IMG/VR virus record: IMGVR_UViG_3300029338_000356
Coordinates: 42,633-106,632 of that record
Length of the DNA stretch: 64,000 nucleotides
Strand: one strand, 5' to 3'
Source of the DNA: a virus
Part shown: positions 29,941 to 45,150 of the stretch, piece by piece
Layout of the letters: every line of letters starts with the position of its first letter
Numbering within the stretch: the stretch's first letter is position 1
The notes under the pieces: model-generated
The model's database searches: none
Told to the model about the DNA's origin: nothing
Seen by the model: the letters and a program-made list of their open reading frames with translations, nothing else
Translations under genes and position numbers: made by a program

Positions 29941-31277
29941 GCGTCCCCACACCAATCCACAAGGACATGGCCGAACAAGTATTGTTGGGGGCCATGCTTC
30001 AAGACGCGGAAACGTTGGACAAGGTCATCAGCCAACTTTCCGAAGAGGACTTCTACCAGCCGACCAACCAAACCATCTTCCATAATATAAAGGAACTGGC
30101 CGCAGACAATAACCGTGTGGACGCGCAAATGCTGTCCTCGCACATGATGGACAACGGACAGTTGGAACAGGTCGGCGGCATCGACTACATCGCCCAGCTT
30201 GTCGGCTCCGCACCCACGTCGAACAACAGTGACTATTTCATCAAGCAGATTCGTGACGCGGCCATCCTCCGCCACATCAACGTGGTCGGACAGCAGTTGC
30301 AACAGATGAGCAACGTGTCCGACGCGTCAGCCGAAGATGTGCTCAGCAAGTCGTTGGAGGCCGCGTTCTCGTTGGAGGATTCAAGCCGTTCCGAAGACGA
30401 CGAGTTGAAGACCGCATACCGCCTGTCCGACGAAATGCTCCAACAGTTGGATGAAATGTCACAGAATCCGAACGAGTTCGGAACACCCACCGGCTTCCGT
30501 GACATCGACGCGTTGACGCACGGATTGCAAGCCGGACAAATGGTCATAGTCGCGGGCCGTCCGGGCATGGGCAAGAGTACTCTCGGCATGGATTTCGCGC
30601 GTAACGCCGCACTGCACAAGGGTCTGCCGACTGTGATTTTCAGTCTGGAAATGGGCGGTCACGAACTCATGCAACGTATGTTCGCAGCCGAAACAGGCAT
30701 CCGTCTCGCATCGTTCCAACATCCCGAGAATCTGAACTCGAATGATTGGAACAAACTCAATGCGCTCTGCCATCAGGTCGAGAAGACACCATTGTGGGTT
30801 GATGATTCCGCCATCATCAACATGAGCACCATCCGTGCGAAATGCCGTGCTCTCAGCCGCAAGGTCAACGGGTTGAAGCTTATCGTCATCGACTACCTGC
30901 AACTCATGTCCTCCGGTAAAACCGTCGAGAACCGTCAGCAGGAAGTGTCGAACTTCTCCCGCCAATGCAAAATGCTCGCCAAGGAACTGCAATGCCCCGT
31001 GGTCGTGCTCTCCCAGTTGAACCGTAATGCGGAACAGCGTGCCGACAAGAAGCCGGAACTGTCCGACCTGAGAGAGTCCGGTTCCATCGAACAGGACGCC
31101 GACATGGTGTTCCTCGTGCATCGTCCCGAATACTACGACCGTGAGGAACGTCCGGGCGAAGCCGACGTGATTCTCGCCAAACATCGCAACGGGCCTACCG
31201 AAACGTTCAATCTCGCGTTCATGGGCGAATGCTCCAAATTCGCGGACATGGCCGCAGGTTTCGAAAACGAGTTCTGA
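29937..31277 (+). CDS. dnaB: replicative DNA helicase (DnaB family)
   Basis: N-terminal DnaB domain (QVLLGAMLQD...), Walker A AGRPGMGKST, H2 IVIDYLQLM, VVLSQLNR, ESGSIEQDADMV motifs. Confidence 0.9.
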   Translation: MSVPTPIHKDMAEQVLLGAMLQDAETLDKVISQLSEEDFYQPTNQTIFHNIKELAADNNRVDAQMLSSHMMDNGQLEQVGGIDYIAQLVGSAPTSNNSDYFIKQIRDAAILRHINVVGQQLQQMSNVSDASAEDVLSKSLEAAFSLEDSSRSEDDELKTAYRLSDEMLQQLDEMSQNPNEFGTPTGFRDIDALTHGLQAGQMVIVAGRPGMGKSTLGMDFARNAALHKGLPTVIFSLEMGGHELMQRMFAAETGIRLASFQHPENLNSNDWNKLNALCHQVEKTPLWVDDSAIINMSTIRAKCRALSRKVNGLKLIVIDYLQLMSSGKTVENRQQEVSNFSRQCKMLAKELQCPVVVLSQLNRNAEQRADKKPELSDLRESGSIEQDADMVFLVHRPEYYDREERPGEADVILAKHRNGPTETFNLAFMGECSKFADMAAGFENEF

Positions 31278-31328: not shown

Positions 31329-32726
31329 ATGCCAACAACATTGCTAATCGTCGCGGCAGTGGCGATACTCATCATCCTGCTCGCGACCGCAAGCTACAAG
31401 GTCTGCCCCGCCGACCGGGTAATGGTCATCACCGGGCCGGGCGGACGACGCTTCGTCTCCGGCGGAAGCGCATTCATCATACCCTTCATCATGCGCGTGG
31501 ACTGGCTCTCCCTCGGAGCGGTGCAGTCGCTCCTGAGAACCGACACGCCGATTCCGACGAAGGACGCAATCCTCATCGACGTGAACGCCGTCGCCAACTT
31601 CCAAATCGCATCCGAGACCATGACCGTGGACGAGAACGGCAAACAAGTCAAAGCGTTGGAGAACGCCGCCAAAAACTATCTCAACCAGTCAAAGGAGCGC
31701 ATGGAGAAAGATGTGACACAAGTGCTCCTAGGCAAGCTGCGCGAGGTCATCGGCAGAACCGAGTTGAAGACACTCATGGAGAACAGGGAAACGTTCGCCA
31801 CGACCGTGGCCGAATCCGCCCGCGTGGACATGGAACGGCTTGGCCTTCAATTGACCACGTTCAACATTCAAGACTTCACCGACCGTCAGAACGTCATCGC
31901 CAACATGGGCGCTGAAATGGCCGCCGAAATCAGCCGGAATGCGAAGCTCGCGTCCATCAACGCGGAACAGGATGTGGCCGTCCGTCAGAACCAGCTCGAC
32001 CTGAAACGAGCCGAACTCCAATCCATCTCCGACAAGGCGCAGGCCGAGGCCGACGCGGTGAAGGGCATCACCGCCGCCGAACAGTCCAAGACTCTCAAGG
32101 TCAAGGAGCAGGAGGCTGAAATCGCCGCCGCCGAGAAGAGGGCAGTGCTCGAACAGAAGAACGCCGAAATCGAAGAGCAGAAACTGAACGCGACCATCCG
32201 CAAGAAGGCCGACGCCGACCGTTACGCCGCCGAACAGCAGGCCGACGCGCAAATGTACACAACCCAAAAACACGCCGACGCGGAACTGTACCTACGTCAG
32301 CAGGAGGCTCAGGCCATCCAATCCACAGCCGACGCGGACGCACACGCGACCGAAGTCAAAGGCAAGGCCGAGGGTTCCGCCGCACAGTCGAAGGGTGTAG
32401 GCGAAGCCGAGGCAATCCGCGCCCAAGGCCGAGCCTACAATGCGATGAACAACACGTACATCCTCGCCCAACAGTACATTCAGATTCTCCCCGACATGGT
32501 TCGAGCCGCCGCCGAACCGCTCACCAAGGTTGACCACATCACCATGTACGGCGACGGAAACAGCACGAAGCTCGTGGGCGACACGGTGAACAGTGTGAGC
32601 CAGTTGAGTGAGGGATTGTCGCAATCCTTGGGCATCGATTTGAAAGCCTTGCTGAACAGTATGGTGGCCGGTCATGCCGCCGGTTCCGCACTAGGTGAGA
32701 AAGTTTCCGAACAGTCCGGAAACTAA
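31329..32726 (+). CDS. SPFH/band-7 (flotillin-like) membrane protein
   Basis: N-terminal TM, SPFH core, long Ala/Glu/Gln coiled-coil (EA repeats) typical of flotillin/YqiK. Confidence 0.8.
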   Translation: MPTTLLIVAAVAILIILLATASYKVCPADRVMVITGPGGRRFVSGGSAFIIPFIMRVDWLSLGAVQSLLRTDTPIPTKDAILIDVNAVANFQIASETMTVDENGKQVKALENAAKNYLNQSKERMEKDVTQVLLGKLREVIGRTELKTLMENRETFATTVAESARVDMERLGLQLTTFNIQDFTDRQNVIANMGAEMAAEISRNAKLASINAEQDVAVRQNQLDLKRAELQSISDKAQAEADAVKGITAAEQSKTLKVKEQEAEIAAAEKRAVLEQKNAEIEEQKLNATIRKKADADRYAAEQQADAQMYTTQKHADAELYLRQQEAQAIQSTADADAHATEVKGKAEGSAAQSKGVGEAEAIRAQGRAYNAMNNTYILAQQYIQILPDMVRAAAEPLTKVDHITMYGDGNSTKLVGDTVNSVSQLSEGLSQSLGIDLKALLNSMVAGHAAGSALGEKVSEQSGN

Positions 32727-32905
32727 CCTGTTCAGGGATATGTTGGAGGGTATGGGAAGCCATGCCCTCCTTATTTTTAAGGGCTGAAAGCATTCTTTCA
32801 AGGTTTTTAATGAGGGTGCGTGCGGTCTATTAGGAATGTAATCCGATACCGACCCCGTTCGATGAATGAACGCGCGCCGGGTCTAGTAAGGAAAGGAAAA
32901 CAAAG

Positions 32906-34636
32906 GTGAAAACCAAAAACCTGTTGAAGGCAACGGTCGCCACGCTTGTGGCCGGTGCCATGGGTTTGGCTGGAGTCGGCTCCGCCATGGCGGCTGATAC
33001 TCGTGTTGACGCATCCAAGCTTGGTGCGGCTGCTCGTCAGACGTTGACCGTCGCTGCTAATGGTGATATTAGCAATCGCACGTTGAAGGCTGTGCCGCTC
33101 GCCTACTATTCGTATGCGCAGACTGATGGCACTAATATTACCGGCTTTGACCTGATTGACGCGAGCAAGGCTTCTGCTATTGCTGACGCACTGACGAAAG
33201 CCCATATTGACACCCAGTCCAAGAAAGACCAGACTGCCGGATACGACTATAATGCGTCCAATCCGATGGTGTGGGTCGTGCAGAATCTCCTTGATTCCGA
33301 GAACAGTCCGTGGGCTGGCAAGCTTCGTGACTTCATCGACCAGTTGAAGAACGAGGCCGCCGTCACCGGCGACAAGGGCACCGCGTTCGCCAAGGGCGCC
33401 GACGCCAAGCATATGACCGCTTCTGTCCGTCCGGGCGTGTATGCGGTCGTGGACGCCACCAAGACCGGTCAGGCGTCCATCGTCATGTTCAACGGCACCG
33501 GCATCGACGGCAAGACCACGTTGAAGAACGGTGAAAAGACCTACACGCTGGGCACCGTGGACTATAAGGTGCATGACGCCGCAGTCAGGAAGGCTATCAC
33601 CTCTGTTGAGAATGGTGATGTGGATGAGAAAATCGGTGAGGACCATGAGGATGAGGGGGCTCGCCAAGCAGGGAAGAAATATTATGCGGTAGCCAAGACC
33701 TCCATCGGCAAGAAGGTCTCTTTCACGATGGGCGGCGCGGTGCCTGTTTGGACTGGCTACGACCATTATTATTATGCGCTCAACGATACGTATTCGGATG
33801 GTCTGACTTTCAACCCGGATAGTATGAATGTCACTGTCGGCGGTAAGACTTTGACTGCTGGCAAGGATTACAAGGTGACGACCGAGGCGGGCAAGTTCCA
33901 TATCCTGTTCGCCCCGACCGCTGATGGTTCTTCCGACATCATCGCCGCCAAGACCACGTTCCCGGTCGATGCGGAAGTGCTTGTCACTTATGACATGACC
34001 GTGAACAAGAACGCCCACGTGGACGGTGTTGACACCAACACGAGCGAGGTCGAATACTCCCATAATCCGAACACCGTCACCGACCATGAGAAGACTCCGG
34101 GCGACACCAACTACGTGTACGTCGGCAAGTTCACTCTGACCAAGACCGATACGAACAATGTTCCGCTCGCGGGTGCCGTGTTCAACATCAAGGATGCCAA
34201 GAGCAATATCGTCAAGTTCGTCAAGGTGGGTGATAACGAGTATCGTGTTGCCGACTCGACTGAGGCCGCTACCGCAAGCGCCGACATCACCACCACCGAT
34301 AAGAACAATGGCGTCATCACCTTGAAGGGCTTGTACGGTGCCTACACGGTGACTGAAACCAAGAGTCCGTTCGGCGGCAGCATTCTGCCGGAGTTCACTC
34401 TGACCGTTGGCGTGGCCCAGTCCAAAGACCATAACACCAGCACTTCGTCCCTCACCAAGTTCAAGGATGATGCCAACCATCTGGCCTCCAAGACCAGTGA
34501 CGATGGAGTGACCGTCATCAACGCCCGCAACATCGCTGACATGCCGAAGACCGGTGCGGTCTGGCTGTCCATCTTCGGCGTGATGACCGTCCTGTTGGCT
34601 GGCGCTTCCGCCCTGCTGCTTCGTCGCAAGGCGTGA
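32906..34636 (+). CDS. sortase-dependent major pilin (SpaA/FimA-like) with MPKTG sorting signal
   Basis: signal peptide, CnaB-type segments (AGAVFNIKDAK), E-box YTVTETKSPFGG, C-terminal DMPKTG + hydrophobic stretch + RRKA. Confidence 0.7.
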   Translation: MKTKNLLKATVATLVAGAMGLAGVGSAMAADTRVDASKLGAAARQTLTVAANGDISNRTLKAVPLAYYSYAQTDGTNITGFDLIDASKASAIADALTKAHIDTQSKKDQTAGYDYNASNPMVWVVQNLLDSENSPWAGKLRDFIDQLKNEAAVTGDKGTAFAKGADAKHMTASVRPGVYAVVDATKTGQASIVMFNGTGIDGKTTLKNGEKTYTLGTVDYKVHDAAVRKAITSVENGDVDEKIGEDHEDEGARQAGKKYYAVAKTSIGKKVSFTMGGAVPVWTGYDHYYYALNDTYSDGLTFNPDSMNVTVGGKTLTAGKDYKVTTEAGKFHILFAPTADGSSDIIAAKTTFPVDAEVLVTYDMTVNKNAHVDGVDTNTSEVEYSHNPNTVTDHEKTPGDTNYVYVGKFTLTKTDTNNVPLAGAVFNIKDAKSNIVKFVKVGDNEYRVADSTEAATASADITTTDKNNGVITLKGLYGAYTVTETKSPFGGSILPEFTLTVGVAQSKDHNTSTSSLTKFKDDANHLASKTSDDGVTVINARNIADMPKTGAVWLSIFGVMTVLLAGASALLLRRKA

Positions 34637-34771
34637 GATTGGAAGATTGGAATACTGCCGTATGAGAAAACTTTTCTGACCGTTTGACGGTTGGAAAAGC
34701 ATGAAATGTTCCGCTTGGCGTGTCGGGAACCCAAATATCGACACGCCACCTTTTAGATTCTTTATAACCGC

Positions 34772-35677
34772 ATGGGAGGGGTTTTGGGAAAACATACGGC
34801 GAAACCGAAAGGCTTGGGAAATCGAGCCATAGCGGGACTTCTCTGCCTAATCCTATCCGCCCTGTCCGGAACCATCCCATTCATTCTCATGATTTCGAAC
34901 AGCAGCCAATCCAACCGGTTGACCGACTCCCACGCGCAAGCCGTGGAAAACACTGACGTGAAACGAATCGCCCAAGAGTATGCGGACGCGCAAGCCTACA
35001 ATCAACGCCTATACGAGGAAGGCCAGTCCATTCTTGGTGAGGCGGAAGACCCTTGGACAGGCGTCAACAAGTCCGAAACGGACAACACGTATCGGAAGCA
35101 ACTATCCACCCCCAAGGATGGGGTCATGGCCACCATCAAATATCCACGCTTGGGCATCAACCTGCCCATCCGGCATGGCACGTCGCAAAACGTGTTGGCC
35201 GCTGGAGCCGGACACTTATACGGTTCCAGTCTCCCCGTCGGCGGCAAGAACACGCATACTGTCATATCCGCGCACACGGGTTTGGCCGACCAGCTCATGT
35301 TCGACAAGCTACGCGGCTTCGGCAGTGAAGCCAAAAAAAGTGACGTCTTCTATCTGATAACCGCCGGACATACGCTCGCCTACAAGGTCACAAGCATTGA
35401 TGTGGTAGACCCATCCGATTTCACCAAACTGAAAATCGTCGCCGGAAAAGACCTCGCCACACTCCTAACCTGCACGCCATACGGCATCAACAACAAGCGA
35501 CTCCTAGTGACCGGCACGCGCACCAGCATGCCGCACCCCGCACCCAGACCCGAAAACGCGCCGAAAGACCACACGAACCAATGGCTCATACTGTACGTCG
35601 GCGGCTTCTGGCTTGCGGTAATCATCATCACCATTCTCATCATCCGTAGAAAAAACCACGCAAAGAAGGAACACTAA
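34772..35677 (+). CDS. class C (pilus-specific) sortase
   Basis: N-terminal TM, catalytic His (ISAHTG), TLLTCTPY catalytic Cys motif, C-terminal TM + basic tail. Confidence 0.85.
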   Translation: MGGVLGKHTAKPKGLGNRAIAGLLCLILSALSGTIPFILMISNSSQSNRLTDSHAQAVENTDVKRIAQEYADAQAYNQRLYEEGQSILGEAEDPWTGVNKSETDNTYRKQLSTPKDGVMATIKYPRLGINLPIRHGTSQNVLAAGAGHLYGSSLPVGGKNTHTVISAHTGLADQLMFDKLRGFGSEAKKSDVFYLITAGHTLAYKVTSIDVVDPSDFTKLKIVAGKDLATLLTCTPYGINNKRLLVTGTRTSMPHPAPRPENAPKDHTNQWLILYVGGFWLAVIIITILIIRRKNHAKKEH

Positions 35678-38600
35678 TGGGTATTCTCAAAAAGCATGTG
35701 GCACATCCGGTAGCATTATTGGCCGCAATCGCCACACTGGCATCCGGCCTGATATGCATGACCAATCCGGTAGCCTCTCCGAAAGCGCATGCGGACGAGT
35801 TGAAACCCGCATATGCTACTGCGAAAATCGTTAAGAAAGCCGACGGTACGGGGCATGGCACGAGTTCGCAAACGTTCGTGAATTCGAAGAACGGGTTCGC
35901 CACGGGCGATGATTCCCCTACCGATGGCGTGGTCGCATCCGGTGATACGGTCGAATATTCTCTCACGTTGAACTTCAACGCGGCGGGCAAGCGTACCATC
36001 AACGTGAAGTTCGACTTGGATGACGCGCCGTATTTGCAGACTGCTGACGGTGGTGGCTTCTGCCAGCCGGGACAACTCGTCACCGCGAAGAAAAACAGTG
36101 ACGGCTCCTGCTCCTACACGGTTCCAGCCGGTGGCGTGGAAACCATGACCCAAACCTTCTATCTGAAAGCAAAAGACACGGGAGGCTTGGTCAAGCCGGG
36201 TCAGATTCCGAAAATCGTCGTCGCCCGCGAAGGTGGAACGTCAACCACGTATCGTACGGATGAGCTGACTGTAGTATCCGCTCCGGCGGCTGACTTGGTC
36301 ATTGACAATGGCGGCAATCCGGTGAAAGGCCAATACTCGTATGAGTATCGTACTTATTGGAGTCAGAACACCGATGCGACCGGTGATTTCACTATTCGTA
36401 CCGACGCGTTGACCTATCCGGGTTATTCGTCCACGAAGGGCGCGTCCACCAGCATCGATTGGACTACCAAAGTGGATATTTCCGACTTCCCGCAGGGCAC
36501 CGTGTGGACTGTAGGCGGTCAGCGGATTACCCGTAACAGTGATAAAGAACAGTATTTGACCGTATCCAGTGGCAAAAACGGTGCGGCGGCGACAATCAGC
36601 TACAGGATTCCCGCCGGAACCGACGCGCTCAAAAACATGAAAGAAGGAGACGTCAAATATTACGATGTCCACCTTGTTCCCGACGAAACCGTGTTCAGCG
36701 TCAAAGACGATAACGGCGACGCACTGTTGAACATGGGCAAAGGTGGAGAACCCGGCTGGAACATTGGACGGGACAAGAGCACCTACAACAAGGATACGGG
36801 TGCCCGCGTTGGCTACCCGTACGCGAACAATGACTGGTCACGAGCCATTATCCAACGGCTCAAGCCGACTCCAGCTGGCAAGATTCCACTGTTCGGCAAA
36901 GGACTGCAACGGCCTAACACTGCGTCCAAGACCATGTTCGACAAGGAGAATCTGACGTTCGACGCCGCCGAAGGCAAAGCCGACATCTACCATTACTATT
37001 CCGACGGTTCCGGCGACACCGTGTCCCGTGGAACGCAAGTCAAAACCATTTTGGAAATGTATGCGGCGAACGTTACGGCGGACAAGCTTAAAAACACTAC
37101 GCCGACCATGCAGGACGAGTGGGATAATACGCGCATGCGGTGGGATGGAAGCTTGGAAGTCACCCAGAACGGCGCTCCGGTTTCCGACTACAAAGTTCAA
37201 TGGGCTGATAGCAAAGACAATTGGCATGACGGGGAACCATCCGACACGGACGCTCCGAACGTCAAGAAGATTCGGGTGACGTTCAACCCCGACGCTTTGA
37301 CTTTGGGAAAGGGTGCGCCGAACGTTCAGGTCACGTTCAACACGCTCGCCATAGCCGACGTGTCCAAAGGCAATGTGGAAGCTTTGGATACGCTGACCGC
37401 ATGGCTTACCGAAGACGATAAGGCGAGCGTCACCAATTGGGTGTGGATTGCCAAGCCGGTAGACCCGACCACCAGTATCGACATCAGTCTGAAAGCCTAC
37501 GATGGTGAAGGCAATCAAGTGTATGCGAACAACAGTTCCAATCACCCGTCCGGAAGCGCAGTCGATTTGATTCCCGGCATGCGAGTGGATTATACGGTCA
37601 CGGAACAGTTGCGCACCATTCTCCTGTCCAATACGAGCATGACGCCGACCATCACGGTGCCGAAACCGAAAGGCTTGTACAATCCGACCTGTGATGATTC
37701 GTTCTGGCAGATGAAAGTGGACGGGAATAATCTCGTGTTCACGCCACGTTCCGGCAAAGTCACGCCTGAAGTAGACCGTATGGGGTCGGCCACTTTGCCT
37801 GACCTGCATTTCAGTGGCATCGTATCCAATCTCGCCACCGGGACTGTCACCGCCAGTGCGAATATGAGCGTGGACGTTGACGAGAACGGCGCATTGCAAG
37901 CCCAAACCATCAAAAGCAATACGCCCAGCGTCCCATTCCCTGTCTCCAATGCGGAAACCAACAGTGGCATCATGCGCGTGAAGACCACGAAGGCTGAAAT
38001 CAGTGACCCGCTTACTTGGGAGTTCAACGTGTACGGCAAGGGCGGCGGCCATACCGGCACCATGGATAGCATGCTACTGCTTCCTGCGAATGGTGATGAG
38101 AAGTACGTGCAGGACAAGCTGGTCGAATATGAGCGTGGATACAGCAACTATCATGGCTCCTACGAACTGACCCAGCCCGTCACGGTCAATATGGACAATT
38201 CGACCAGTACGACCGTCTACTATTCAACCACCACCGGAAAGAAGTCGGATAATCCGGCTGACTACGAGTGGAAGACATGGGATGAATTGTCCGCCATCGA
38301 GAAGAAGAACATCACCGCCATCCGACTGACCAGCACTGTCGTCGCGTCTGACGATAAACTGTCCTATTCGGCGGTGAACGGCACCATCACGCTCATCCCA
38401 TCCGACAATGTGAAAGACGACAAGTACACGCTGTGGCTTGGCCGCAACTATTATTCCGACGCTTCCGACAAACCGGCGGGCAACCAGCCGTGGCCTGACG
38501 TGGCGAAGGTAGTGTCCGGTAGTATCAGCGGTACCGTCTGGTGGGATAAGGATGAGAACACGCTCATCGGAGACGGTGAGGAACGTATCGAAGGAGTGGA

Positions 38601-41061
38601 AGCCGCCCTCGACAAGCAGGATTCAAGCGGCGGCTGGCAGACCGTCAAAACGGTGAAGACCGACAAGGACGGCCATTACGAGTTCGACCTGCTCCACTCC
38701 GGCACCTACCGCACTTCGGTGAAACGCAACACTGGCACCAGTACGGGTGATGGCGTGCAGACGCAGGTCAAAACCTACTACAACAAGCTCGAAGACGTGG
38801 TGAACACGCGCAGCTGGTCGAACAAAATCAAGTCCAACGCGAAAGACACGTCCGACGACATCCACCTAGGCATCGGCGCAGACCAGAAGAACGTGGACTA
38901 CGGTTACGCGAAACCAGACCCGAAAGCCACCGTGGACAAAACCGTCACCGGCACCAGTTGCACTGATACGAAATGCGTCATCAACTGGGATGTCAAAGTA
39001 CAGAATTCTGGCACTAGCCGTTTTGACACGTCCAGTGTCGTTTCTGACCGTATGAGCGCTGATGTGCATGATGTTTCCGCTACCGCCGGTACGGTTTCCA
39101 TCGAATCTGGTGGCGCGAAGCAGGTTGCGACGAGTGGCGACCATAAGTTTGTGTTGACGAGTGAGGGCTTGTTGTATGCGTGGGGTAATAACCAGTATGG
39201 TCAGCTTGGTTTCAAGCCTGACACGACGAATTCTGCCACTCCAATGAACGTGAACAAGCCGACCATCATCAACGGTAGTTGGCTGAAAGTCGCCGCCGGA
39301 GGCAAGCATTCCGCCGCCATCAGCACGGACGGACACTTGTATACGACTGGTTGGAATGGTAGCGGCCAATTGGGTACGGGTGATACGGATAATCGTGACC
39401 AGTGGACGGAAGTCGCTTCGGATAAAACATTCATTGACGTGGCATGCGGCAACCAGTTCACCGTCGCTATCGCAAGCGACGGCACTTTGTGGGGTGCTGG
39501 AAACGCTGTAAGCTATCAGAACTATGCGACTTGGACGCAAATCGGTTCTGATGTCAAGTTCACTCAACTCAGTGCAAGCATGGACGGTTTCATCGCATTG
39601 AACACATCCGGCAGATACCTGTACTACGGTACAGATGTTCAGGGGCAGGGCGCTGGCGGTTATACGCAAGTCGCCGCCGCGTTCGGTCGAATGTATGCGT
39701 TGAAAAATGATGGGACGGTGATTCAGGTTGCCACAACCTATGATGACTCTTATTCGCCTAACTTGTCCGGTTTGAAGGACATTGTGAAAATCAGCGGCGG
39801 ATACAATACCCTGTACGCCATCGACAAGAACCAGCACTTGTGGTCTATGGGTTGGAATGGTGACGGCCAGTTGGCTAACGGTCAGACCGGTAGTGGCACG
39901 TATTGGACGGACGGTAGTACGAGTGGCAATAAGGATATTGTCTACACACCGTTCGATACGAACATTATCGCATCCGACGTGGCGGGTGGCGACCGTGATG
40001 TGCTCATTCTTGGCAAGCAGGTCATGATTGCGGGCTTCGACCCGTATGGTGACGGTAAGACGGGTGGCGCGCGTTCCACCGGTTTGAAAGGCATGGCCGT
40101 ATCGTCCGACCCAACCGCCGTACCTGTCGAACCATCGAGCGAAACCACTAAGAACGGGTTGACTACCCGCACATACAATCTGCCATACAGTATTGAGCCG
40201 GGCGGCTATGTCATCTACCATTTCACCGGCACCGTTGACCGTGATATTACGGATACGACAAAGTGGGAACTGTCCGATATTGACAAGTGGGTGAAAGAGC
40301 ATACGAAGACCATTCTCAACCAAGCATGGTTCGACTCCGAACACACACCATACTCGGGCACGCCGCACGCAAGCGGCAAAACCAAGCCGAACACTCCGGA
40401 CGCTACGAAACTGGATGCCAACACGAATGATGTGACCGGCAATCCGACCTGCCGCACCGACACGGACTATACGGAGGAAGGACGCCAACACTGGTTCAGC
40501 ACGTCCGATGAGGACTCCTGCGACCAAGTCGGCATCATCATCACACCAACCACCACCGCGAAGAAACTCGGTTCCATCAGCGGCCTGTATTGGGAGGACA
40601 CCAACAAGAACGGCATTCAAGATGAAGGTGAGAACACGCATTTCGCCGGTCAAACGGTCATTCTGACTGACGAGAACGGCAAACAGTTGGCAACCACCAA
40701 GACCGACAAGGATGGCAAGTACATTTTCGAACGTCTGGACGCGAACGGCAACAAATACCGTATTCAATTTACCAAAGTGAACCACCGGGACTTCACCACG
40801 CCGGATGTGGGAGACAAGACTCCTGCGACGGATGGAAGCTCCACCGATTCGGACGCTTACACGGACGAAGACAACAAGCTGACCATTACCCTCACCCAAG
40901 ATGCTCCAACCAAGGAGCATGTGGATGCGGGTGTCCTGCCTGAAACATGGTTGGCGACCATGCCGCACACGGGCATGGGATTGCTGTTGCCGCTCCTCAT
41001 GCTCGTCAGCGTCAGCGGACTCGTCACGGCAATCATCCTCCTACGAAAGAAGGAAGAATAG
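35677..41061 (+). CDS. pilus tip adhesin-like large surface protein: signal peptide, RCC1-type beta-propeller repeats, CnaB/SdrD-B-like domains, MPHTG sorting signal
   Basis: 1794 aa; RCC1 repeats (LYAWGNNQYGQLG, LYTTGWNGSGQLGTG, LWSMGWNGDGQLANG), CnaB (GSISGTVWWDKDEN...DKDGHYEF; GSISGLYWEDTNKNG...DKDGKYIF), C-terminal MPHTG+TM+LRKKEE. Confidence 0.7.
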   Translation: MGILKKHVAHPVALLAAIATLASGLICMTNPVASPKAHADELKPAYATAKIVKKADGTGHGTSSQTFVNSKNGFATGDDSPTDGVVASGDTVEYSLTLNFNAAGKRTINVKFDLDDAPYLQTADGGGFCQPGQLVTAKKNSDGSCSYTVPAGGVETMTQTFYLKAKDTGGLVKPGQIPKIVVAREGGTSTTYRTDELTVVSAPAADLVIDNGGNPVKGQYSYEYRTYWSQNTDATGDFTIRTDALTYPGYSSTKGASTSIDWTTKVDISDFPQGTVWTVGGQRITRNSDKEQYLTVSSGKNGAAATISYRIPAGTDALKNMKEGDVKYYDVHLVPDETVFSVKDDNGDALLNMGKGGEPGWNIGRDKSTYNKDTGARVGYPYANNDWSRAIIQRLKPTPAGKIPLFGKGLQRPNTASKTMFDKENLTFDAAEGKADIYHYYSDGSGDTVSRGTQVKTILEMYAANVTADKLKNTTPTMQDEWDNTRMRWDGSLEVTQNGAPVSDYKVQWADSKDNWHDGEPSDTDAPNVKKIRVTFNPDALTLGKGAPNVQVTFNTLAIADVSKGNVEALDTLTAWLTEDDKASVTNWVWIAKPVDPTTSIDISLKAYDGEGNQVYANNSSNHPSGSAVDLIPGMRVDYTVTEQLRTILLSNTSMTPTITVPKPKGLYNPTCDDSFWQMKVDGNNLVFTPRSGKVTPEVDRMGSATLPDLHFSGIVSNLATGTVTASANMSVDVDENGALQAQTIKSNTPSVPFPVSNAETNSGIMRVKTTKAEISDPLTWEFNVYGKGGGHTGTMDSMLLLPANGDEKYVQDKLVEYERGYSNYHGSYELTQPVTVNMDNSTSTTVYYSTTTGKKSDNPADYEWKTWDELSAIEKKNITAIRLTSTVVASDDKLSYSAVNGTITLIPSDNVKDDKYTLWLGRNYYSDASDKPAGNQPWPDVAKVVSGSISGTVWWDKDENTLIGDGEERIEGVEAALDKQDSSGGWQTVKTVKTDKDGHYEFDLLHSGTYRTSVKRNTGTSTGDGVQTQVKTYYNKLEDVVNTRSWSNKIKSNAKDTSDDIHLGIGADQKNVDYGYAKPDPKATVDKTVTGTSCTDTKCVINWDVKVQNSGTSRFDTSSVVSDRMSADVHDVSATAGTVSIESGGAKQVATSGDHKFVLTSEGLLYAWGNNQYGQLGFKPDTTNSATPMNVNKPTIINGSWLKVAAGGKHSAAISTDGHLYTTGWNGSGQLGTGDTDNRDQWTEVASDKTFIDVACGNQFTVAIASDGTLWGAGNAVSYQNYATWTQIGSDVKFTQLSASMDGFIALNTSGRYLYYGTDVQGQGAGGYTQVAAAFGRMYALKNDGTVIQVATTYDDSYSPNLSGLKDIVKISGGYNTLYAIDKNQHLWSMGWNGDGQLANGQTGSGTYWTDGSTSGNKDIVYTPFDTNIIASDVAGGDRDVLILGKQVMIAGFDPYGDGKTGGARSTGLKGMAVSSDPTAVPVEPSSETTKNGLTTRTYNLPYSIEPGGYVIYHFTGTVDRDITDTTKWELSDIDKWVKEHTKTILNQAWFDSEHTPYSGTPHASGKTKPNTPDATKLDANTNDVTGNPTCRTDTDYTEEGRQHWFSTSDEDSCDQVGIIITPTTTAKKLGSISGLYWEDTNKNGIQDEGENTHFAGQTVILTDENGKQLATTKTDKDGKYIFERLDANGNKYRIQFTKVNHRDFTTPDVGDKTPATDGSSTDSDAYTDEDNKLTITLTQDAPTKEHVDAGVLPETWLATMPHTGMGLLLPLLMLVSVSGLVTAIILLRKKEE

Positions 41062-41075
41062 TGAAAGGAACAAGA

Positions 41076-42005
41076 ATGGGCGAACACGCCACACAACATG
41101 GGAGCCGCCATACGGTTCGGCGGCTCCTCGCCAGTCTCGCCATCATGAGCGCGGTCTGCGGCGGCTTCCTCACCGGTAGTGCAATAGCCGCCGAACCAGC
41201 CAAATGCAATACTGGCGTGGACAAGGTTTGCTACGCGGGCTATAATGCGGCGGGTTTGAAACAGATTGCCGACGATTTGAGCGAGAAAGGTAAGGGAAGC
41301 ACATACTATGCCGCAATGGAAGACAATCTGACCAAAGGTACGGCGGGTTTCCTCACCTTATCGGACGGTTCGAATCTCCCATTCCGACTCATCGGCATCC
41401 TCCACGACGACAATGCCGACGGAAGTGGACGGGAAGCAGGATTGACGTTCATGGCTTGGAACGCGTTACCGAAAGCGTATGCCATGAACAATAGTTACAC
41501 CAATAGGGGCGGCTGGCGTGACAGTCTTCTTCGCAATCAGATGAACAATGGTGAAATCTGGAACCAATTCCCCACGGACTTCCAAAACAATGTCACACCC
41601 GTGTTGAAACAAACCAACAACATGGCCTACGGAAGCGCAAGCGGTTCAAGCGCGTCAGCCACAGCGGACAAAGTATGGCTCGTCTCCTACCGTGAACTCG
41701 TGTCCACTATGCATGACGGTTGGAAGACCTACGGTGGTTTTCAAGCGTGGAGTCAGGAGGGAAGTCAATACGAGTACTTCAGCGGCAAGGTGACGAACAA
41801 CTATTCGGGTAATGGCATTCTCTCCGGCATTTACAAAACCGTTTCCGGTTCCACTCCTCTTGGTGCTGGCATCAACCGTTGGTGGGAGCGTTCGCCCTAC
41901 CCGGACTACGGCAACTATTTCCTCCAAGTGAACTCGAACGGCGACCCCAGCTACGACAGCTATGCTAACTATCGCTACTCCGTTGTCCCCGCTTTCTCCT
42001 TCTAA
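41076..42005 (+). CDS. DGR target protein (secreted; C-terminal variable region)
   Basis: signal peptide RRLLASLAIMSAVCGGFLTGSAIAAEPA; last ~55 codons match the downstream TR except at TR adenines; start at internal Met of ORF 40947..42005. Confidence 0.75.
   Translation: MGEHATQHGSRHTVRRLLASLAIMSAVCGGFLTGSAIAAEPAKCNTGVDKVCYAGYNAAGLKQIADDLSEKGKGSTYYAAMEDNLTKGTAGFLTLSDGSNLPFRLIGILHDDNADGSGREAGLTFMAWNALPKAYAMNNSYTNRGGWRDSLLRNQMNNGEIWNQFPTDFQNNVTPVLKQTNNMAYGSASGSSASATADKVWLVSYRELVSTMHDGWKTYGGFQAWSQEGSQYEYFSGKVTNNYSGNGILSGIYKTVSGSTPLGAGINRWWERSPYPDYGNYFLQVNSNGDPSYDSYANYRYSVVPAFSF
41838..42002 (+). repeat. DGR variable repeat (VR)
   Basis: 165-bp alignment to TR (offset 798 bp); ~17 mismatches all at TR adenines, concentrated in AAC codons (VR GGC/ATC/CGT/TAC/GAC/TAT/AGC vs TR AAC/AAT). 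Confidence 0.85.
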
Positions 42006-42017
42006 TCCCCAATCCTT

Positions 42018-42044
42018 GGGTGGTGGGGTTCATCCCCACCACCC
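42018..42044 (+). other. GC-rich hairpin immediately 3' of VR (DGR homing-enhancing stem-loop candidate)
   Basis: GGGTGGTGGGG-ttcat-CCCCACCACCC perfect 11-bp stem ~13 nt after the target stop codon. Confidence 0.6.
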
Positions 42045-42077
42045 CTCCAAACTCAAATCTCACACAAAAGGAGTCCT

Positions 42078-42593
42078 ATGACGGTTCCCGCAAGCAAACG
42101 TACAAAAGCCAGAAGCGAATATGCGAATCAGGCCAGAATCGTGCTCTTGGCTACCAGAAATCTGTTCCGCAAGTGGCCTAAAAGCCGTAACTGTATTGAA
42201 ACCGTGCATGTCATGCATATCGCCTATGAAATGTACTCTTCCGCCTACAGTGCCGACATCATTTATGCGAACACAATCGAGGAACATGAGATGAAACTGC
42301 AACTGTTGTGCAAGGCCCAAGGCATGTTGAACTCACTCTCCGGTCTTGTGGACGATTGGATGGAGTTTCCTCCACGGGAAAAAGACTTGGAAGTCTACAG
42401 GAAATATCCGGAAGGCGACCCCAGATACAATCCCGTCGTCAAGGAGAAGAAATTCGTGAACTATGCGGGAACCATCTACAAGGCGATGGGCGTGTTCACC
42501 GGAGCCGTCAAGTATGAGCGAGACCAGTTGAAGAAAGCTAAAAACGCCGAGTCGAAAACGAACACTATAATGGATACTCGGGCGCAAGCCTAA
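42078..42593 (+). CDS. avd: accessory variability determinant (Avd)-like small helical protein
   Basis: 171-aa basic ORF between target gene and TR, the canonical Avd position; predicted all-helical. Confidence 0.55.
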   Translation: MTVPASKRTKARSEYANQARIVLLATRNLFRKWPKSRNCIETVHVMHIAYEMYSSAYSADIIYANTIEEHEMKLQLLCKAQGMLNSLSGLVDDWMEFPPREKDLEVYRKYPEGDPRYNPVVKEKKFVNYAGTIYKAMGVFTGAVKYERDQLKKAKNAESKTNTIMDTRAQA

Positions 42594-42635
42594 AATATAA
42601 TTGAACAAAATCGGCCATATCCAAACTATGGTGAC

Positions 42636-42800
42636 ACCGTTTCCGGTTCCACTCCTCTTGGTGCTAACAACAACAATTGGTGGGAGCGTTCGCCCAACCC
42701 GAACAACAACAACAATTTCCTCCAAGTGAACTCGAACGGCGACCCCAGCTACAACAACAATGCTAACAATCGCTACTCCGTTGTCCCCGATTCCTCTTAC
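42636..42800 (+). repeat. DGR template repeat (TR)
   Basis: non-coding copy of VR, adenine-rich (12 AAC/AAT codon-equivalents); lies between avd and RT. Confidence 0.85.
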
Positions 42801-42984
42801 CAAAAACTAACATCAGATAGGCCAGTAGTCCAATGGGTGAAAGCCTCCCGAAGGGGAAGGGGATATGGTCGAATGCGCGGCCCCTCGAAAAATGGGTTGC
42901 GTGTGAAAATAGGTTGAGGGAGATATTAAGACTGTCGGAAACGACGGATACTCGCCCCTTAAGCTGGGCGTCCAACATCATTGC

Positions 42985-44214
42985 ATGTCTTGGGTTGTTG
43001 CCGACGACCTGCCCTCAACCATTCTTTTCTCTTTCCCTAGTGAAGGAAGCATTAAAATCGTGAATGCGAGTCAAAGACGTAGAAGACGCCAACGCAGACT
43101 GCAACAACGCTCGGATGATAAGTACAGGAAGCTCCACCGTTACATCGACTTCCAACAAACATTCGGATTCGACGCGCTCTACCAAGCCGCAAGAAAATGC
43201 AAACGCGGCGTCACGTGGAAAAACACAGTGTTGAACTTCGACAATAGGCGTGCCGTCAACTGTTGGAAACTCGCCCAAGAATTAGAGGACGGCACATACA
43301 AGAAGAGAGCGCCAATCCGATTCGACATTTCCGAACGTGGCAAGCTTCGCCATATCAGCGCGGTCTCATTCCGAGACCGGGTGGTGCAACGCGCTCTGTG
43401 CGATAACAGTCTTGTACCCATCGTGGAAAGCCAACTGATATATGATAATGCGGCGAGCCTTCCGAAACGTGGAACATCGTTCGCCCGAAAACGGTTTGAA
43501 CTACACTATAAGCGGGCTTTGGGTAAATGGGAGCATCCGTATGCTGTCATATTCGACTGTTCCAACTATTTCGGCAGTATCAGCTCCCAACGCGCGTTCG
43601 ATATGATTTCCACCCTGTACCGGAGTATCGCCCGCACCGGACGGGAGAAGCAGGATGTGGAACGGATTCTAACCGTATTGAGAATCTTCGTATTGGACGA
43701 ACCCCACTTAGGGTTAGGTAATCAGACGAGCCAAACCATAGCTATCTGGTATCTGAACAAGGTTGACCACTGGTGCATGTCGCAAGGATTCTACGGACGG
43801 TACATGGACGATGCCTACTGTTTCTGCAAGAATCGTGAACAGGCCGAACGTGTGCTGGCCGGTTATGAGCGGCGTGTCAATCAATTGGGATTGCGGTTGA
43901 ACAAGCATAAGACCCGCATAGTGGACTGTCATACCGGTCAACTCACATTCCTGAAACGCGTATACAGTGTACAGGATGACGGCAGTATTCTTATCCGCAT
44001 GCACCATAAGGCGTTGCGTGCAAGCCGACGGCATGCGCGTAACCTTATCCGCTCATATGATGGCGTGCATGTGGGATTGCGGACAGTTCAGGATTCTTGG
44101 ACGAGCCATGAGAGCACACTGTCGGGTCTAACTCACCGTCGTGGACTGTACGCTCGGGAGAAAGCGTGGTATCGGAGGCATTGTGAAATGCGGAAGCTGG
44201 CTTTTCACCCGTGA
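42985..44214 (+). CDS. DGR reverse transcriptase
   Basis: RT motifs incl. YMDDAY (YxDD) and the DGR-specific LGLGNQTSQ (I/LGxxxSQ); N-terminal LYQAARKCKRGVTWK typical of DGR RTs; true start may be GTG ~43060. Confidence 0.9.
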   Translation: MSWVVADDLPSTILFSFPSEGSIKIVNASQRRRRRQRRLQQRSDDKYRKLHRYIDFQQTFGFDALYQAARKCKRGVTWKNTVLNFDNRRAVNCWKLAQELEDGTYKKRAPIRFDISERGKLRHISAVSFRDRVVQRALCDNSLVPIVESQLIYDNAASLPKRGTSFARKRFELHYKRALGKWEHPYAVIFDCSNYFGSISSQRAFDMISTLYRSIARTGREKQDVERILTVLRIFVLDEPHLGLGNQTSQTIAIWYLNKVDHWCMSQGFYGRYMDDAYCFCKNREQAERVLAGYERRVNQLGLRLNKHKTRIVDCHTGQLTFLKRVYSVQDDGSILIRMHHKALRASRRHARNLIRSYDGVHVGLRTVQDSWTSHESTLSGLTHRRGLYAREKAWYRRHCEMRKLAFHP

Positions 44215-44538
44215 TATTCCGGACTTTCCAGATTGTGTGGTGGAGGGGCGTAATCTGCTGGAAGCTTTGGATGGGACGAGAAAAAGATTGTCCGTCCGAT
44301 TAGCAGAAATGGTGGCGCAGAATCTTCCGCTTCCTCAAGAGAGTCGTTGGATGAGATTTCGTGCGGCTTGGATTGCATCGTATTCCACATCGGCATGCTT
44401 ATCGGCTAGTTTTTCTTCCCGGCTTGGTGTTACACTGGGTTTACTTGCATTTCCTTCCTCGGGACTTCGCCCATGTGGGGCTTTAGAGGTTATCGGCGCA
44501 TTGGTTAGAGTATGCCGTTTGAGTGAAAGGAAACTGTC

Positions 44539-45150
44539 ATGGCAGGTTTTGATGATATTACGGTCACTCGCAGTGATGGCCGTTTGAAGGTTAAGGCTCC
44601 GTATAATCCGTTGTTTGCCCGTCGCTCCCGCGCGTTGGGCGGAACGTTTGATGACAAGTCGAAGACTTGGACGTTCGATATGCGTGTGGAAAGGCTGGTG
44701 TTCGAAGCTTTAGACAAATATTTCTGGTGGCATAAGGGCGTGGACGCTGAAAAGCGTGTCACAGTCACCATCGACCCCTACGACTACTTGTACGCGTACT
44801 CCAAGCAGGATAGCGACATTATCTGGTTCGCTGGTCGAATCCTAGTCGAAAAATATCAGCCCGACCGTCCACCGCGCATGATGCCGAATGTGGCTCTCGT
44901 GGATGGCATGTGGCCTAAAACCGGCTTGTATACGGGGTTGAATCTCATTCCCGACAAACTCCGATTATTGGTATGGGATGTTCCCACCAGTTTTCTGGAA
45001 CGATTGTCGTCCGGCAAGTATGAGTTGTCTGAGCCGGATGGTGATACGTTGACTGCGGTTGACGTTCGTATTCAGGCTGTGGAGGAACGGTTAGGCCGGT
45101 TGAGGGAACTCCGAACCCGACTCGCCTCTAATAGTGAGGATGGTGAATGA
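44539..45150 (+). CDS. hypothetical protein
   Basis: 203-aa ORF downstream of RT, 4-bp overlap with next ORF. Confidence 0.45.
   Translation: MAGFDDITVTRSDGRLKVKAPYNPLFARRSRALGGTFDDKSKTWTFDMRVERLVFEALDKYFWWHKGVDAEKRVTVTIDPYDYLYAYSKQDSDIIWFAGRILVEKYQPDRPPRMMPNVALVDGMWPKTGLYTGLNLIPDKLRLLVWDVPTSFLERLSSGKYELSEPDGDTLTAVDVRIQAVEERLGRLRELRTRLASNSEDGE

Follow-up and report, generated by a model that had tools for sequence, protein, structure and literature searches.

Organization of the locus

The window analysed here, a 64-kb stretch of DNA, carries four + strand genes at 32906-42005, whose open reading frames are all present at the coordinates described before. In the order given in a preliminary description of this DNA, they encode a major (backbone) pilin (576 aa, 32906..34636), a class C, pilus-polymerising sortase (301 aa, 34772..35677), a 1794-aa adhesin that is a sortase substrate and the putative pilus tip (35677..41061), and a secreted 309-aa DUF6273 protein (41076..42005), the variable protein of a DGR, hereafter called the lectin. 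The 5' boundary of the pilus unit is a terminator-like hairpin with a T-run on the + strand (32745..32770; 11-bp stem, 7 GC pairs, tail TTATTTTTAA), which ends the Band_7/flotillin gene upstream. The sortase stop and adhesin start overlap by 1 nt. The adhesin stop codon ends at 41061, and the gap to the lectin gene is 14 nt, in agreement with the start 15 bp past the stop that had been reported. This gap holds an AAGGA ribosome-binding site, and a scan of it for a terminator-like site, which the preliminary description had named as counter-evidence, found none. The pilin-sortase spacer (34671..34766, + strand) contains two stable hairpins (34671-34699 and 34716-34748), the second of which is terminator-like and followed by a T-rich tail. 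The spacer folds with an MFE of -40.1 kcal/mol (z -3.31), and none of 200 shuffles folded equally well. We consider it a candidate partial terminator or attenuator, setting an excess of pilin over sortase and adhesin; because a terminator-like hairpin separates pilin and sortase, one uniform operon transcript is not assured.

The pilin, which carries a signal peptide, matches GramPos_pilinBB (68.8 bits, cutoff 30.5) and SpaA (38.1 bits) in Pfam, as well as TIGR04226 (55.3 bits). It displays the E-box YTVTETKSPFGG, a conserved pilin-motif-like lysine, K221, and two putative isopeptide triads (K229/D294/N378 and K413/E484/N539), these key residues being kept in 91-100% of 56 family members, and it ends with NIADMPKTG, a hydrophobic stretch/membrane helix and RRKA. 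The E-box, CnaB-type character and DMPKTG end previously ascribed to this protein are thus all seen. The sortase scores 222.9 bits against the NCBIfam class_C_sortase model (cutoff 160), compared with 39 bits for class E, and possesses the TLLTCTPY motif with the catalytic Cys, a DPW lid and a C-terminal membrane helix. It is therefore a class C, pilus-specific enzyme rather than the housekeeping sortase that the preliminary description had raised as the contrary case. In the clade alignment, its relatives are marked by a 4-residue insertion after FDKL.

No known family matched the N-terminal ~975 aa of the adhesin. A SpaA/CnaB-like segment lies near aa 967-1012, followed by an RCC1 beta-propeller at ~aa 1110-1480 (nt ~39000-40120), a C-terminal SdrD_B domain at aa 1635-1753, and LATMPHTG, a hydrophobic stretch/membrane helix and RKKEE at the C-terminus. 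The Pfam matches (RCC1, 86.4 bits; RCC1_2, 91 bits in four stretches; SdrD_B, 84.9 bits in two stretches) agree with the RCC1 blades and two SdrD-B/CnaB domains proposed earlier, and the RCC1 region has matches to structures of UVR8 and RCC1 (E value 1e-29). When copies of the element are compared, this region stands out as an allelic hotspot of mosaic structure.

MPxTG sorting signals in the pilin/sortase clade

The pilin DMPKTG and adhesin TMPHTG motifs are the only two cell-wall sorting signals found in the 64-kb window. As originally noticed, both substrates end in M-P-x-T-G followed by a hydrophobic helix and a basic tail. DMPKTG was found in 120 of 120 close pilin homologues, and MPxTG in ~40 of the 128 pilin cluster representatives that bear a signal, mainly among the ~45 best matches (35-67% identity). 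A survey of MPxTG against this sortase clade, as the preliminary description had suggested, revealed co-occurrence in most of the related loci examined: both substrates are of the MPxTG type in L029, L031, L033, L035, L038 and L041, as is the lone adhesin of L042. Few pilins deviate, with DLPKTG in L006 and MPKSG in L036/37 and L040. In L029, an LPLTG cluster with a 362-aa sortase adjoins an MPxTG cluster with a 301-aa sortase. The Pfam LPXTG anchor model matches the L029 LPLTG pilin; it gave no match to the tails of the pilin and adhesin of the window even at E<=1. MPxTG is thus a sorting signal conserved clade-wide among these pilins and sortases. The clade may not strictly discriminate M from L, since the DLPKTG pilin of L006 is paired with a same-clade sortase.

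A complete DGR rewrites the lectin gene

The DUF6273 target has a C-type-lectin fold and a signal peptide with a cleavage site between AIA and AE. Sequence and domain searches found no sorting signal, lipobox, wall-binding repeat or recognisable pilus-docking/wall-binding module in it. The VR occupies its last 56 codons (168 nt, 41838..42005). The TR (42636..42803), whose encoded sequence includes GANNNNWWERSPNPNNNNNFLQVNSNGDPSYNNNANNRY, has this single VR-like partner in the window. All elements of the cassette lie on the + strand. A GC-rich 11-bp hairpin without T-run (42018..42044, z -4.19) starts 13 nt past the VR, at the site expected for the DGR retrohoming hairpin; it is kept in L032, L035 and L036, with a diverged form in L042. 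Between the target and the TR lies a gene for a basic, helical, 171-aa Avd-like accessory protein (42078..42593), whose AF2 model is a helical bundle (pLDDT 74) with only weak matches in structure searches (best specific match 2gsc, TM 0.81 on target). Its assignment as Avd is tentative, because it had no match in Pfam, NCBIfam or PHROG. The 409-aa DGR reverse transcriptase (42985..44214) matches RVT_1 with 53.6 bits, and its best plasmid matches are cyanobacterial reverse transcriptases, one of them annotated beside avd. The DGR is thus complete, with hairpin, Avd-like gene, TR and reverse transcriptase, and the window has a single VR, at the C-terminus of the fourth gene.

The VR of the window differs from its TR at 17 adenines and at only three other bases, all at the 3' (IMH) end. 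Among 17 natural copies of the element, 15 distinct VRs were found, with 16-27 mismatches at TR adenines versus 3-5 at other bases, so that VR diversity is adenine-specific. Positions templated by AAC/AAT codons display 7-9 residue types, and entropy reaches 0.96 in the VR compared with 0.1-0.3 elsewhere. In L001, a 3-nt deletion is common to TR and VR. We conclude that the DGR actively rewrites the lectin gene.

Carrier element and related loci

The operon lies on a large, plasmid-like extrachromosomal element of about 217-240 kb that is widespread in gut Bifidobacterium, and it also occurs on chromosomes. Its earlier description as plasmid-borne holds in part: the element encodes RepA_C, ParA and DnaB, and the best plasmid matches of its RepA are Bifidobacterium megaplasmids (36% identity), but it is catalogued as viral in IMG/VR, and no conjugation genes were found in the 64-kb window. 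Phage structural genes were likewise not found in this window.

A DUF6273 gene directly follows the RCC1 adhesin gene in six other locus types, with 46-73% target identity, which strengthens the proposal that the DGR target is the last gene of the operon. One of these is the chromosome of B. moukalabense, where the arrangement sits between housekeeping genes on a 745-kb contig. The adhesin and lectin genes overlap by 14 nt in L035, L036/37, L038/39, L040 and L041; they adjoin in L032, and also in L042, there with the same 14-nt offset from the adhesin stop codon as in the window. DUF6273 is present in seven of the eight locus types with a complete RCC1 adhesin, and absent in all three without one, counts that do not represent independent events because the lectin-bearing loci could share one ancestral insertion. 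In L029, an RCC1 adhesin is present and no lectin was found. Conversely, the lectin of L038/39 is intact beside a mere adhesin remnant and a truncated sortase, so the lectin may be able to do without the adhesin. An intact DGR is seen in the ~217-kb element alone; relics occur in about five locus types, those of the Avd N-terminus being seen in L032, L035, L036/37, L040, L041 and L042, together with a reverse transcriptase fragment in L036/37 (65% identity, E 1e-22). Because the adhesin-lectin order and the Avd and reverse transcriptase relics recur in diverged loci, chromosomal as well as mobile, pilin, sortase, adhesin, lectin and DGR look like an old unit.

Proposed mechanism and alternative readings

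Taken together, these data support the earlier interpretation of a pilus operon with a DGR target, and we give a probability of roughly 65% to the overall reading in which 32906-42005 represents a sortase-built pilus operon from the Bifidobacterium adolescentis group, carried on a plasmid-like element, joined to an active DGR and working as set out next. In the proposed mechanism, the sortase would cleave MPxTG between T and G, polymerise the pilin via K221 and cap the fibre with the RCC1 adhesin, whose position at the tip we infer. The co-expressed lectin would be exported by Sec. Since it lacks an anchor, it would be displayed by docking non-covalently on the adhesin, the RCC1 propeller being the foremost candidate for the docking site. 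The reverse transcriptase would copy TR RNA into the VR with adenine mutagenesis, re-programming ~20 residues on the lectin binding face, so that the pilus could keep pace with variable ligands, for instance glycans of the host or of microbes, or the surfaces of recipient cells. That the lectin binds the pilus, and that it serves in mating-pair or in host-surface recognition, are put forward as predictions of this model.

On the pilus side, MPxTG might be a neutral L-to-M variant without effect on specificity, which any sortase of class C or of the housekeeping type would process equally well. Met resembles Leu, LPKTG is found in the L006 pilin and a few clade members, and an MPQTG variant is listed for Lactobacillus paracasei surface proteins (PMC3716772). 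We regard this reading as possible but doubtful, since ~40 cluster representatives, with identities as low as 35%, keep M, as do both substrates in most loci, the sortase clade has its own insertion, and the LPLTG and MPxTG substrates of L029 lie in neighbouring clusters with a sortase each. In L042, a conjugation-like module (FtsK/SpoIIIE, CHAP, NlpC/P60) contains adhesin and lectin genes that have neither pilin nor sortase next to them, suggesting that the 1794-aa protein might be wall-anchored independently instead of sitting at a tip; adhesin and lectin would then be a conserved pair to which neighbouring pilin and sortase genes supply anchoring, a reading also favoured by L006, where pilin and sortase occur with the adhesin absent. 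In the window, L029, L032, L033, L035, L036/37, L040 and L041, however, a pilin, a sortase and a large MPxTG adhesin recur in this order; together with the class C nature of the sortase and the sortase/adhesin gene overlap, this makes an independently anchored adhesin unlikely.

The lectin itself might not belong to the pilus but act, after secretion, freely or at the cell surface, as a DGR-diversified, soluble protein that binds glycans (of host or microbes) or immunoglobulin A and has its gene in the operon only for co-regulation. Its Sec signal peptide without any anchoring motif and its survival in L038/39 beside a truncated sortase and adhesin are consistent with such a function; yet every locus that bears the lectin gene has it tightly adjoining the adhesin gene or overlapping it, and it was never seen beside same-clade pilus loci devoid of the RCC1 adhesin, and we consider the free factor rather unlikely. 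Much less probable still is that the DGR is a phage-type hitch-hiker landed by chance downstream of the operon, its target being a phage-like receptor-binding protein unrelated to the pilus. Gut phage DGRs typically have DUF6273 targets (PMC10743442; bioRxiv 10.1101/2024.10.15.618418), the element is catalogued in IMG/VR, and the pilus trio of L029 lacks the cassette. This origin is difficult to reconcile with a window in which no phage structural genes were found, with the same arrangement between B. moukalabense housekeeping genes, with the 14-nt gene overlap, and with at least six locus types in which the lectin reading frame has stayed intact although the DGR decayed or was lost.

Comparison with known systems

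The element shares its size class, ParA and host genus with the pMP7017 family of bifidobacterial conjugative megaplasmids (PMC8313286), whose RepA is the best match among plasmids (36% identity) of the RepA_C-domain RepA found here. These megaplasmids showed no nucleotide similarity to the locus and no pilin homologue, and, as opposed to them, the element is listed as viral in IMG/VR, and no conjugation genes were seen in the window. With the phage DUF6273 DGRs (tentaclins, Mtd-like proteins; Toutatisvirus hotspot), the locus has in common the target family, the VR at the DUF6273 C-terminus, the cassette order target, avd, TR, reverse transcriptase, and lineages that lose the DGR and keep the target. 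There, the cassette belongs to a tail module; here, it lies in a pilus operon that is also chromosomal, its target carries a Sec signal peptide, and family models fail to recognise the Avd-like protein.

Compared with SpaA-type pili (Corynebacterium diphtheriae SpaA-SrtA, Actinomyces FimA/FimP, Bifidobacterium pil), we found the same class C sortase with lid and C-terminal membrane helix, the same backbone pilin with CnaB-type domains, E-box and tripartite sorting signal, the same conserved lysine 8 residues before the isopeptide lysine, and the same large second substrate in the operon. By contrast, MPxTG replaces LPxTG on both substrates and clade-wide, the gene order is pilin, sortase, adhesin with no base pilin, the adhesin bears an RCC1 beta-propeller instead of a vWFA, thioester or CnaA tip module, and the operon adds a fourth, unanchored lectin gene and the DGR. 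The closest analogue is the DGR-diversified Type V pilus tip of Bacteroides, likewise found in a gut commensal and on a mobile element, with the DGR at the 3' end of the pilus operon and natural adenine-directed VR diversity in human metagenomes; the paper describing it mentions neither sortases, Gram-positives nor Bifidobacterium. In that Gram-negative system, the variability resides in the tip subunit itself, which derives from a lipoprotein and is added by strand exchange, whereas here the pilus is Gram-positive and sortase-built, and it is a separate, secreted protein, not one of the sortase substrates, that varies.

Organization of the pilus operon

The six genes in 32.9-44.2 kb of the window all lie on the + strand, downstream of a terminator-like hairpin (32745-32770) that closes the upstream Band_7 gene. 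The first of them encodes a 576-aa pilin (32906-34636, +), which scores above the cutoffs of the GramPos_pilinBB, SpaA and TIGR04226 models and reaches 75.8 with the whole-protein model NF033902, under its cutoff of 95. In an alignment with 55 family representatives, the best-conserved residues were K221, K229, D294, N378, K413, E484 and N539: K229/D294/N378 and K413/N539 are conserved in 91-100% of family members, E484, inside the E-box YTVTETKSPFGG, in 96%, and K221 (TVDYK), 8 residues ahead of K229, in 98%. The canonical YPK motif is absent from the pilin, and a PDB sequence search with the protein gave no match. The K221/K229 spacing is similar to that of K190/K199 in SpaA. By analogy with the SpaA structure, K221 would be the pilin-motif lysine, and K229, 8 residues further on, would open the first of two Lys-Asn isopeptide triads. 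The protein ends in DMPKTG, a hydrophobic helix and RRKA. The 135-nt spacer 3' of the gene contains two stable hairpins (z -3.3), the second of which (34716-34748) is followed by a T-rich tail and could act as a partial terminator, letting the pilin be made in excess. The Band_7/flotillin gene directly upstream of the operon (31329-32726) is intact in the window; two other copies, L001 and L003, carry it as a pair of ORFs (37 + 368 aa and 260 + 193 aa, respectively).

The sortase gene (34772-35677, +) scores 222.9 bits with the NCBIfam class_C_sortase model (cutoff 160) and 39 bits with class E, bearing out the class C assignment of the preliminary description; its product has a DPW lid, a membrane helix at the C-terminus and the sequence TLLTCTPY. 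The gene's stop codon shares one base with the start of the adhesin gene (35677-41061, +), which encodes 1794 aa with an RCC1 propeller and SdrD_B domains. The propeller region scores 86.4 bits with RCC1 and 91 bits with RCC1_2, both above the family thresholds, and 125.6 with the whole-propeller model WD40_RLD, under its cutoff of 150, and it matches UVR8 structures at E 1e-29. No Pfam family was found at E<=1 in the first 975 aa. The adhesin ends in TMPHTG, a helix and RKKEE. Within the 64-kb window, tripartite sorting signals composed of a motif, a hydrophobic helix and a basic tail were found in the pilin and adhesin tails only. The initial proposal of a sortase-pilus operon with MPxTG signals stands.

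A clade of MPxTG pilins and sortases

Canonical LPxTG is absent from both substrates, and the Pfam LPXTG anchor model (PF00746) gave no match at E<=1 on their two isolated tails; the same model does pick up the LPLTG pilin of the related locus L029. DMPKTG is present in 120/120 close pilin homologues. A search of 50%-identity cluster representatives returned 128 signal-bearing pilin matches, 40 of them with MPxTG; the motif is carried by nearly all of the closest ~45 matches (35-67% identity), and LPxTG is found in more distant pilins. The preliminary description had suggested surveying whether MPxTG accompanies this sortase clade, and in the loci around these pilins both substrates carry the motif. 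The pilin signal is MPKTG in L029, L031 (B. pseudolongum), L033, L035, L041 and L038/39, where the second substrate ends in MPHTG, MPTTG, MPQAG, MPMTG, MPMTG and, for an adhesin remnant, MPTTG, respectively; in L036/37 and L040, MPKSG is paired with MPMTG. L029 naturally pairs the two signal types: directly upstream of its MPxTG cluster is a canonical pilus cluster with LPLTG in both substrates and a sortase of 362 aa. A 4-residue insertion is common to the MPxTG-associated sortases, whereas LPxTG-type sortases are without it. The exception is L006, in which the pilin carries DLPKTG and a nearby surface protein MPNTG.

Across these homologues and loci, MPxTG is a clade property of the pilins and sortases, and it defines a clade missed by the Pfam LPXTG anchor model. 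In the literature searched, neither MPXTG nor MPKTG was found as a sorting signal, MPQTG being mentioned in passing in a Lactobacillus paracasei genome paper (PMC3716772); as far as that literature goes, the clade is an unreported feature. The motif may also be functionally neutral, a reading favoured by the deviating L006 pilin. If the specificity is real, protein engineers would gain from the clade an orthogonal pair of sortase and tag.

A secreted lectin and its diversifying cassette

The target gene (41076-42005, +) starts 14 nt after the adhesin stop, is preceded by an AAGGA ribosome-binding site, and encodes a 309-aa DUF6273 protein with a Sec signal peptide. No terminator-like site was found in the 14-nt gap, in line with the co-transcription of adhesin and target proposed earlier. 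Neither a sorting signal nor a pilin domain, lipobox or anchor was found in the target. Its AlphaFold2 model, built from an alignment of 55 homologues, is confident (pLDDT 85.9), and its more distant matches include TvpA, a variable protein of a DGR, as well as the C-terminal domain of Lcl, a Type V fimbrial protein from Bacteroides and numerous C-type lectins; a PDB sequence search gave noise only. The model thus predicts a C-type-lectin fold with the variable region (VR) on the binding face, and DUF6273 has been described in the literature as a DGR target domain resembling C-type lectins (PMC10743442; bioRxiv 10.1101/2024.10.15.618418). Two patches outside the VR, residues 140-144 and 184-189, are polymorphic among close variants (4-8 residue types) and may be loops adjoining the VR face.

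The VR (41838-42005), the target's last 168 nt, pairs with a 168-nt template region (TR, 42636-42803) that encodes runs of AAC/AAT codons. They differ at 17 TR adenines and at 3 other positions, all 3 at the extreme 3' end; no second partner of the TR was found within the window. The 3' ends of VR (CCCCGCTTTCTCC) and TR (CCCCGATTCCTCT) differ (IMH / IMH*), and a GC-rich hairpin of 11 bp follows the VR (42018-42044, z -4.19); the differing ends would function as IMH and IMH*, and the hairpin, placed where a DGR retrohoming hairpin is expected, would act in retrohoming. Between hairpin and TR lies a gene for a basic, helical protein of 171 aa, for which no Pfam, NCBIfam or PHROG match was found and a PDB sequence search gave noise. 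Its AF2 model is a helical bundle with weak Foldseek matches only, making its assignment as a putative Avd positional and weakly structural. The reverse transcriptase gene (RT, 42985-44214) scores 53.6 bits with RVT_1, and its best plasmid matches are RTs of cyanobacterial DGR-like loci, one of them beside an annotated avd. Rfam gave no match at E<=0.1 on 32-45.5 kb. In many copies of the element, a short segment (44072-44371) that covers the 3' end of the RT gene and the spacer ahead of gene 44539-45150 shows 73-80% identity between flanks of 95-100%.

Diversification among copies of the element

Seventeen copies of the element, with backbones 96-100% identical, carry 15 different VRs. When each VR was compared with its own TR, 16-27 differences were found at adenine positions and 3-5 at other bases. 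A 3-nt deletion is common to TR and VR in one copy, L001, and sequence entropy in the target, whose clusters have hundreds to 1229 members, is concentrated at residues 265-299. From this population-level comparison of copies, as distinct from a time series, we conclude that the DGR is active in human guts or was so until recently. In one IMG/VR copy (L021, 8888-9813), the target gene continues directly into the TR, with no avd-like gene between them, which looks like a deletion by VR/TR homologous recombination.

Variation of another kind is found in 38400-42600, from about aa 900 of the adhesin to its end and through the target and the avd-like gene. This region is a mosaic of diverged alleles with breakpoints that vary by copy, and the backbone outside it is 96-100% identical. 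Identity is lowest (58%) at 39572-39871, within the RCC1 propeller. The propeller as a second DGR target was considered and rejected: there is no second TR-like site, and dS in the RCC1 part is 0.5-0.7, versus about 0.04 in the adhesin N-terminus, with dN/dS about 0.27. These values point to a block imported as old alleles, and the mosaic is as expected if recombination, and not the DGR, had shuffled such alleles.

The carrier replicon

The locus is also present on metagenome contigs of 217-239 kb, and one pilin sequence occurs on 380 contigs. The carrier named by NCBI is B. adolescentis in the case of the pilin and B. pseudocatenulatum in that of a target with 85% identity. The window encodes a RepA_C protein (7495-8484), ParA-like proteins (9173-9958 and 19860-21074) and DnaB (29937-31277), and the best plasmid matches of RepA (36% identity) are Bifidobacterium megaplasmids of the pMP7017 family (PMC8313286); a RepA look-up returned only contigs <5 kb. 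With homologues from the related loci L006, L038 and L042 as queries, no T4CP, relaxase or FtsK-like conjugation gene was found in the window. No phage structural gene was found there either, and 20 ORFs gave no structural PHROG match, so that a phage is the less favoured reading even though IMG/VR lists the element as viral, with contigs up to 216,833 bp. The plasmid-borne location suggested in the preliminary description therefore holds in part: RepA_C, ParA-like and DnaB genes speak for it, the viral listing and the lack of a conjugation gene in 64 kb against it. "Plasmid-like" is the best label, not a proven one given that listing.

Neither the plasmid nor the phage collection contained a megablast match to the 11.5-kb locus. 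With tblastn, the pilin retrieved only distant Clostridium perfringens pilins from plasmids, and the target retrieved a few distant DUF6273 matches in uninformative contexts from plasmids and phages. A jumbo-phage lead from the literature proved irrelevant. The window also holds two IS605-family OrfB/TnpB genes with a Cas12f-like TNB domain and a gene for a GmrSD-type restriction endonuclease domain protein (4093-5355, -; 46132-47043, +; 3042-4067, -), and in L001 a Y1 transposase takes the place of gene 45147-46154.

The lectin persists where the retroelement has decayed

Target homologues with 43-100% identity come from Bifidobacterium. In B. moukalabense (L035, 745-kb contig), the operon lies between EPSP synthase and acyltransferase/GPDH/Ddl genes, in the order pilin, sortase, RCC1 adhesin and DUF6273, the last two genes overlapping by 14 nt; order and overlap are the same in L036/37, L040 and L041. 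L042 carries adhesin and DUF6273 beside FtsK/SpoIIIE, CHAP and NlpC/P60 genes, with pilin and sortase absent. The adhesin-DUF6273 order thus recurs in all these loci, which strengthens the proposal of the target as the last operon gene. The operon of L038/39, located on an element that encodes a TrwC relaxase, has decayed, but its DUF6273 gene is intact. In L032, a deletion of ~3.9 kb from avd codon ~26 into gene 45147-46154 has removed TR and RT and left the target with a frozen VR. In this same locus (L032 11443-11800 against window 42005-46154), the pilin has diverged (64-67% identity), and sortase and adhesin are near-identical.

No intact RT was found in the lectin-bearing relatives L032 and L035-L042, and scans of viral and metagenome collections for diverged loci with an intact RT (RT relatives of 66% and 79% identity) gave the same element only. 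Relics of the cassette are nevertheless present. The hairpin that follows the VR can still be made out in L032, L035 and L036 and, in diverged form, in L042; the first 28-37 avd codons are recognisable in L032, L035, L036/37, L040, L041 and L042. L041 retains a longer avd remnant and a TR-spacer fragment, and L036/37 part of the RT (aa 139-209, 65% identity, E 1e-22). In L029, the pilus trio is accompanied by neither a lectin nor DGR relics, and L031, L033 and L006 have neither RCC1 adhesin nor lectin. In L006 (1-20849, from a Bifidobacterium MAG), a pilin and sortase of this clade directly follow a gene for a TraG/VirD4-type coupling protein, and a MobA/VirD2-like relaxase is encoded nearby; conjugative elements therefore also carry the pilus module, without adhesin, lectin or DGR.

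The simplest reading of these comparisons is that pilin, sortase and RCC1 adhesin, together with lectin, avd, TR and RT, would form an old unit of seven parts, which would have moved between chromosomes and mobile elements, repeatedly losing the retroelement and keeping the lectin, and that this unit remains intact only in the ~217-kb element. Since the loci possibly stem from one founding event, they are not independent replicates. An intact lectin ORF kept across this divergence, together with the overlapping genes, argues for a lectin function within the operon. Loci with a decayed DGR and a persisting lectin provide natural controls for frozen versus evolving lectins.

A putative two-piece pilus tip

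We propose, tentatively and with a probability of about 0.3, that the unanchored, DGR-diversified lectin docks non-covalently on the RCC1 propeller, forming a two-piece, re-programmable Gram-positive pilus tip, and that an orthogonal MPxTG/sortase pair keeps its assembly apart from that of LPxTG pili. The sortase would cleave MPxT/G, polymerise the pilin via K221 and cap the fibre with the adhesin. The lectin would be exported by Sec and, being without an anchor of its own, displayed by docking on the adhesin, where the propeller would be the obvious protein-binding platform; its presence correlates with that of the lectin. DGR retrohoming would rewrite about 20 residues of the lectin's binding face. 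Candidate ligands are host glycans or mucin, IgA and the surfaces of other bacteria. A role in mating-pair recognition is possible, and the mobile contexts beside conjugation genes (L006, L038 and L042) would be compatible with it; since chromosomal copies exist, the operon would not serve a purely transfer function.

Parts of this arrangement can be read differently. The lectin may be secreted as a free factor, as favoured by its intact gene in L038/39, where a whole adhesin is missing; the correlation with the propeller and the gene overlaps speak for the docked lectin. Likewise, the adhesin may be anchored to the wall and not sit at a pilus tip, for which L042, with adhesin and lectin and neither pilin nor sortase, is the supporting case; the recurrence of the pilin-sortase-adhesin order in L035, L036/37, L040 and L041 speaks for the tip. 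That the DGR is a chance hitch-hiker is unlikely in view of the chromosomal synteny and the relics.

Relation to known systems

If the docked lectin is real, it would represent a display principle undescribed for DGRs or sortase pili. Bifidobacterium is a key human gut commensal, and the element is common. As a counterpart to the Bacteroides tips described below, a DGR in a sortase-pilus operon would suggest that accelerated evolution of adhesive appendages is a general gut strategy. The parts themselves are known: SpaA-type pili, class C sortases, DGRs and DUF6273 targets. No paper combining DGR, sortase and pilus was found in the literature searched, within which the coupling of a DGR to a sortase-pilus operon through an unanchored lectin is unreported. 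The closest system is found in Bacteroides, where Type V pilus tips on ICEs are diversified by DGRs (bioRxiv 10.1101/2024.11.15.621889); the study mentions neither a sortase nor a Gram-positive case. There, in a Gram-negative, the variable protein is the pilus subunit itself, whereas the target described here, with no sorting signal, pilin domain or lipobox, is not a pilus subunit. The operon would be the Gram-positive counterpart of the recently described Bacteroides Type V DGR tips, and the first Gram-positive case in the literature searched.
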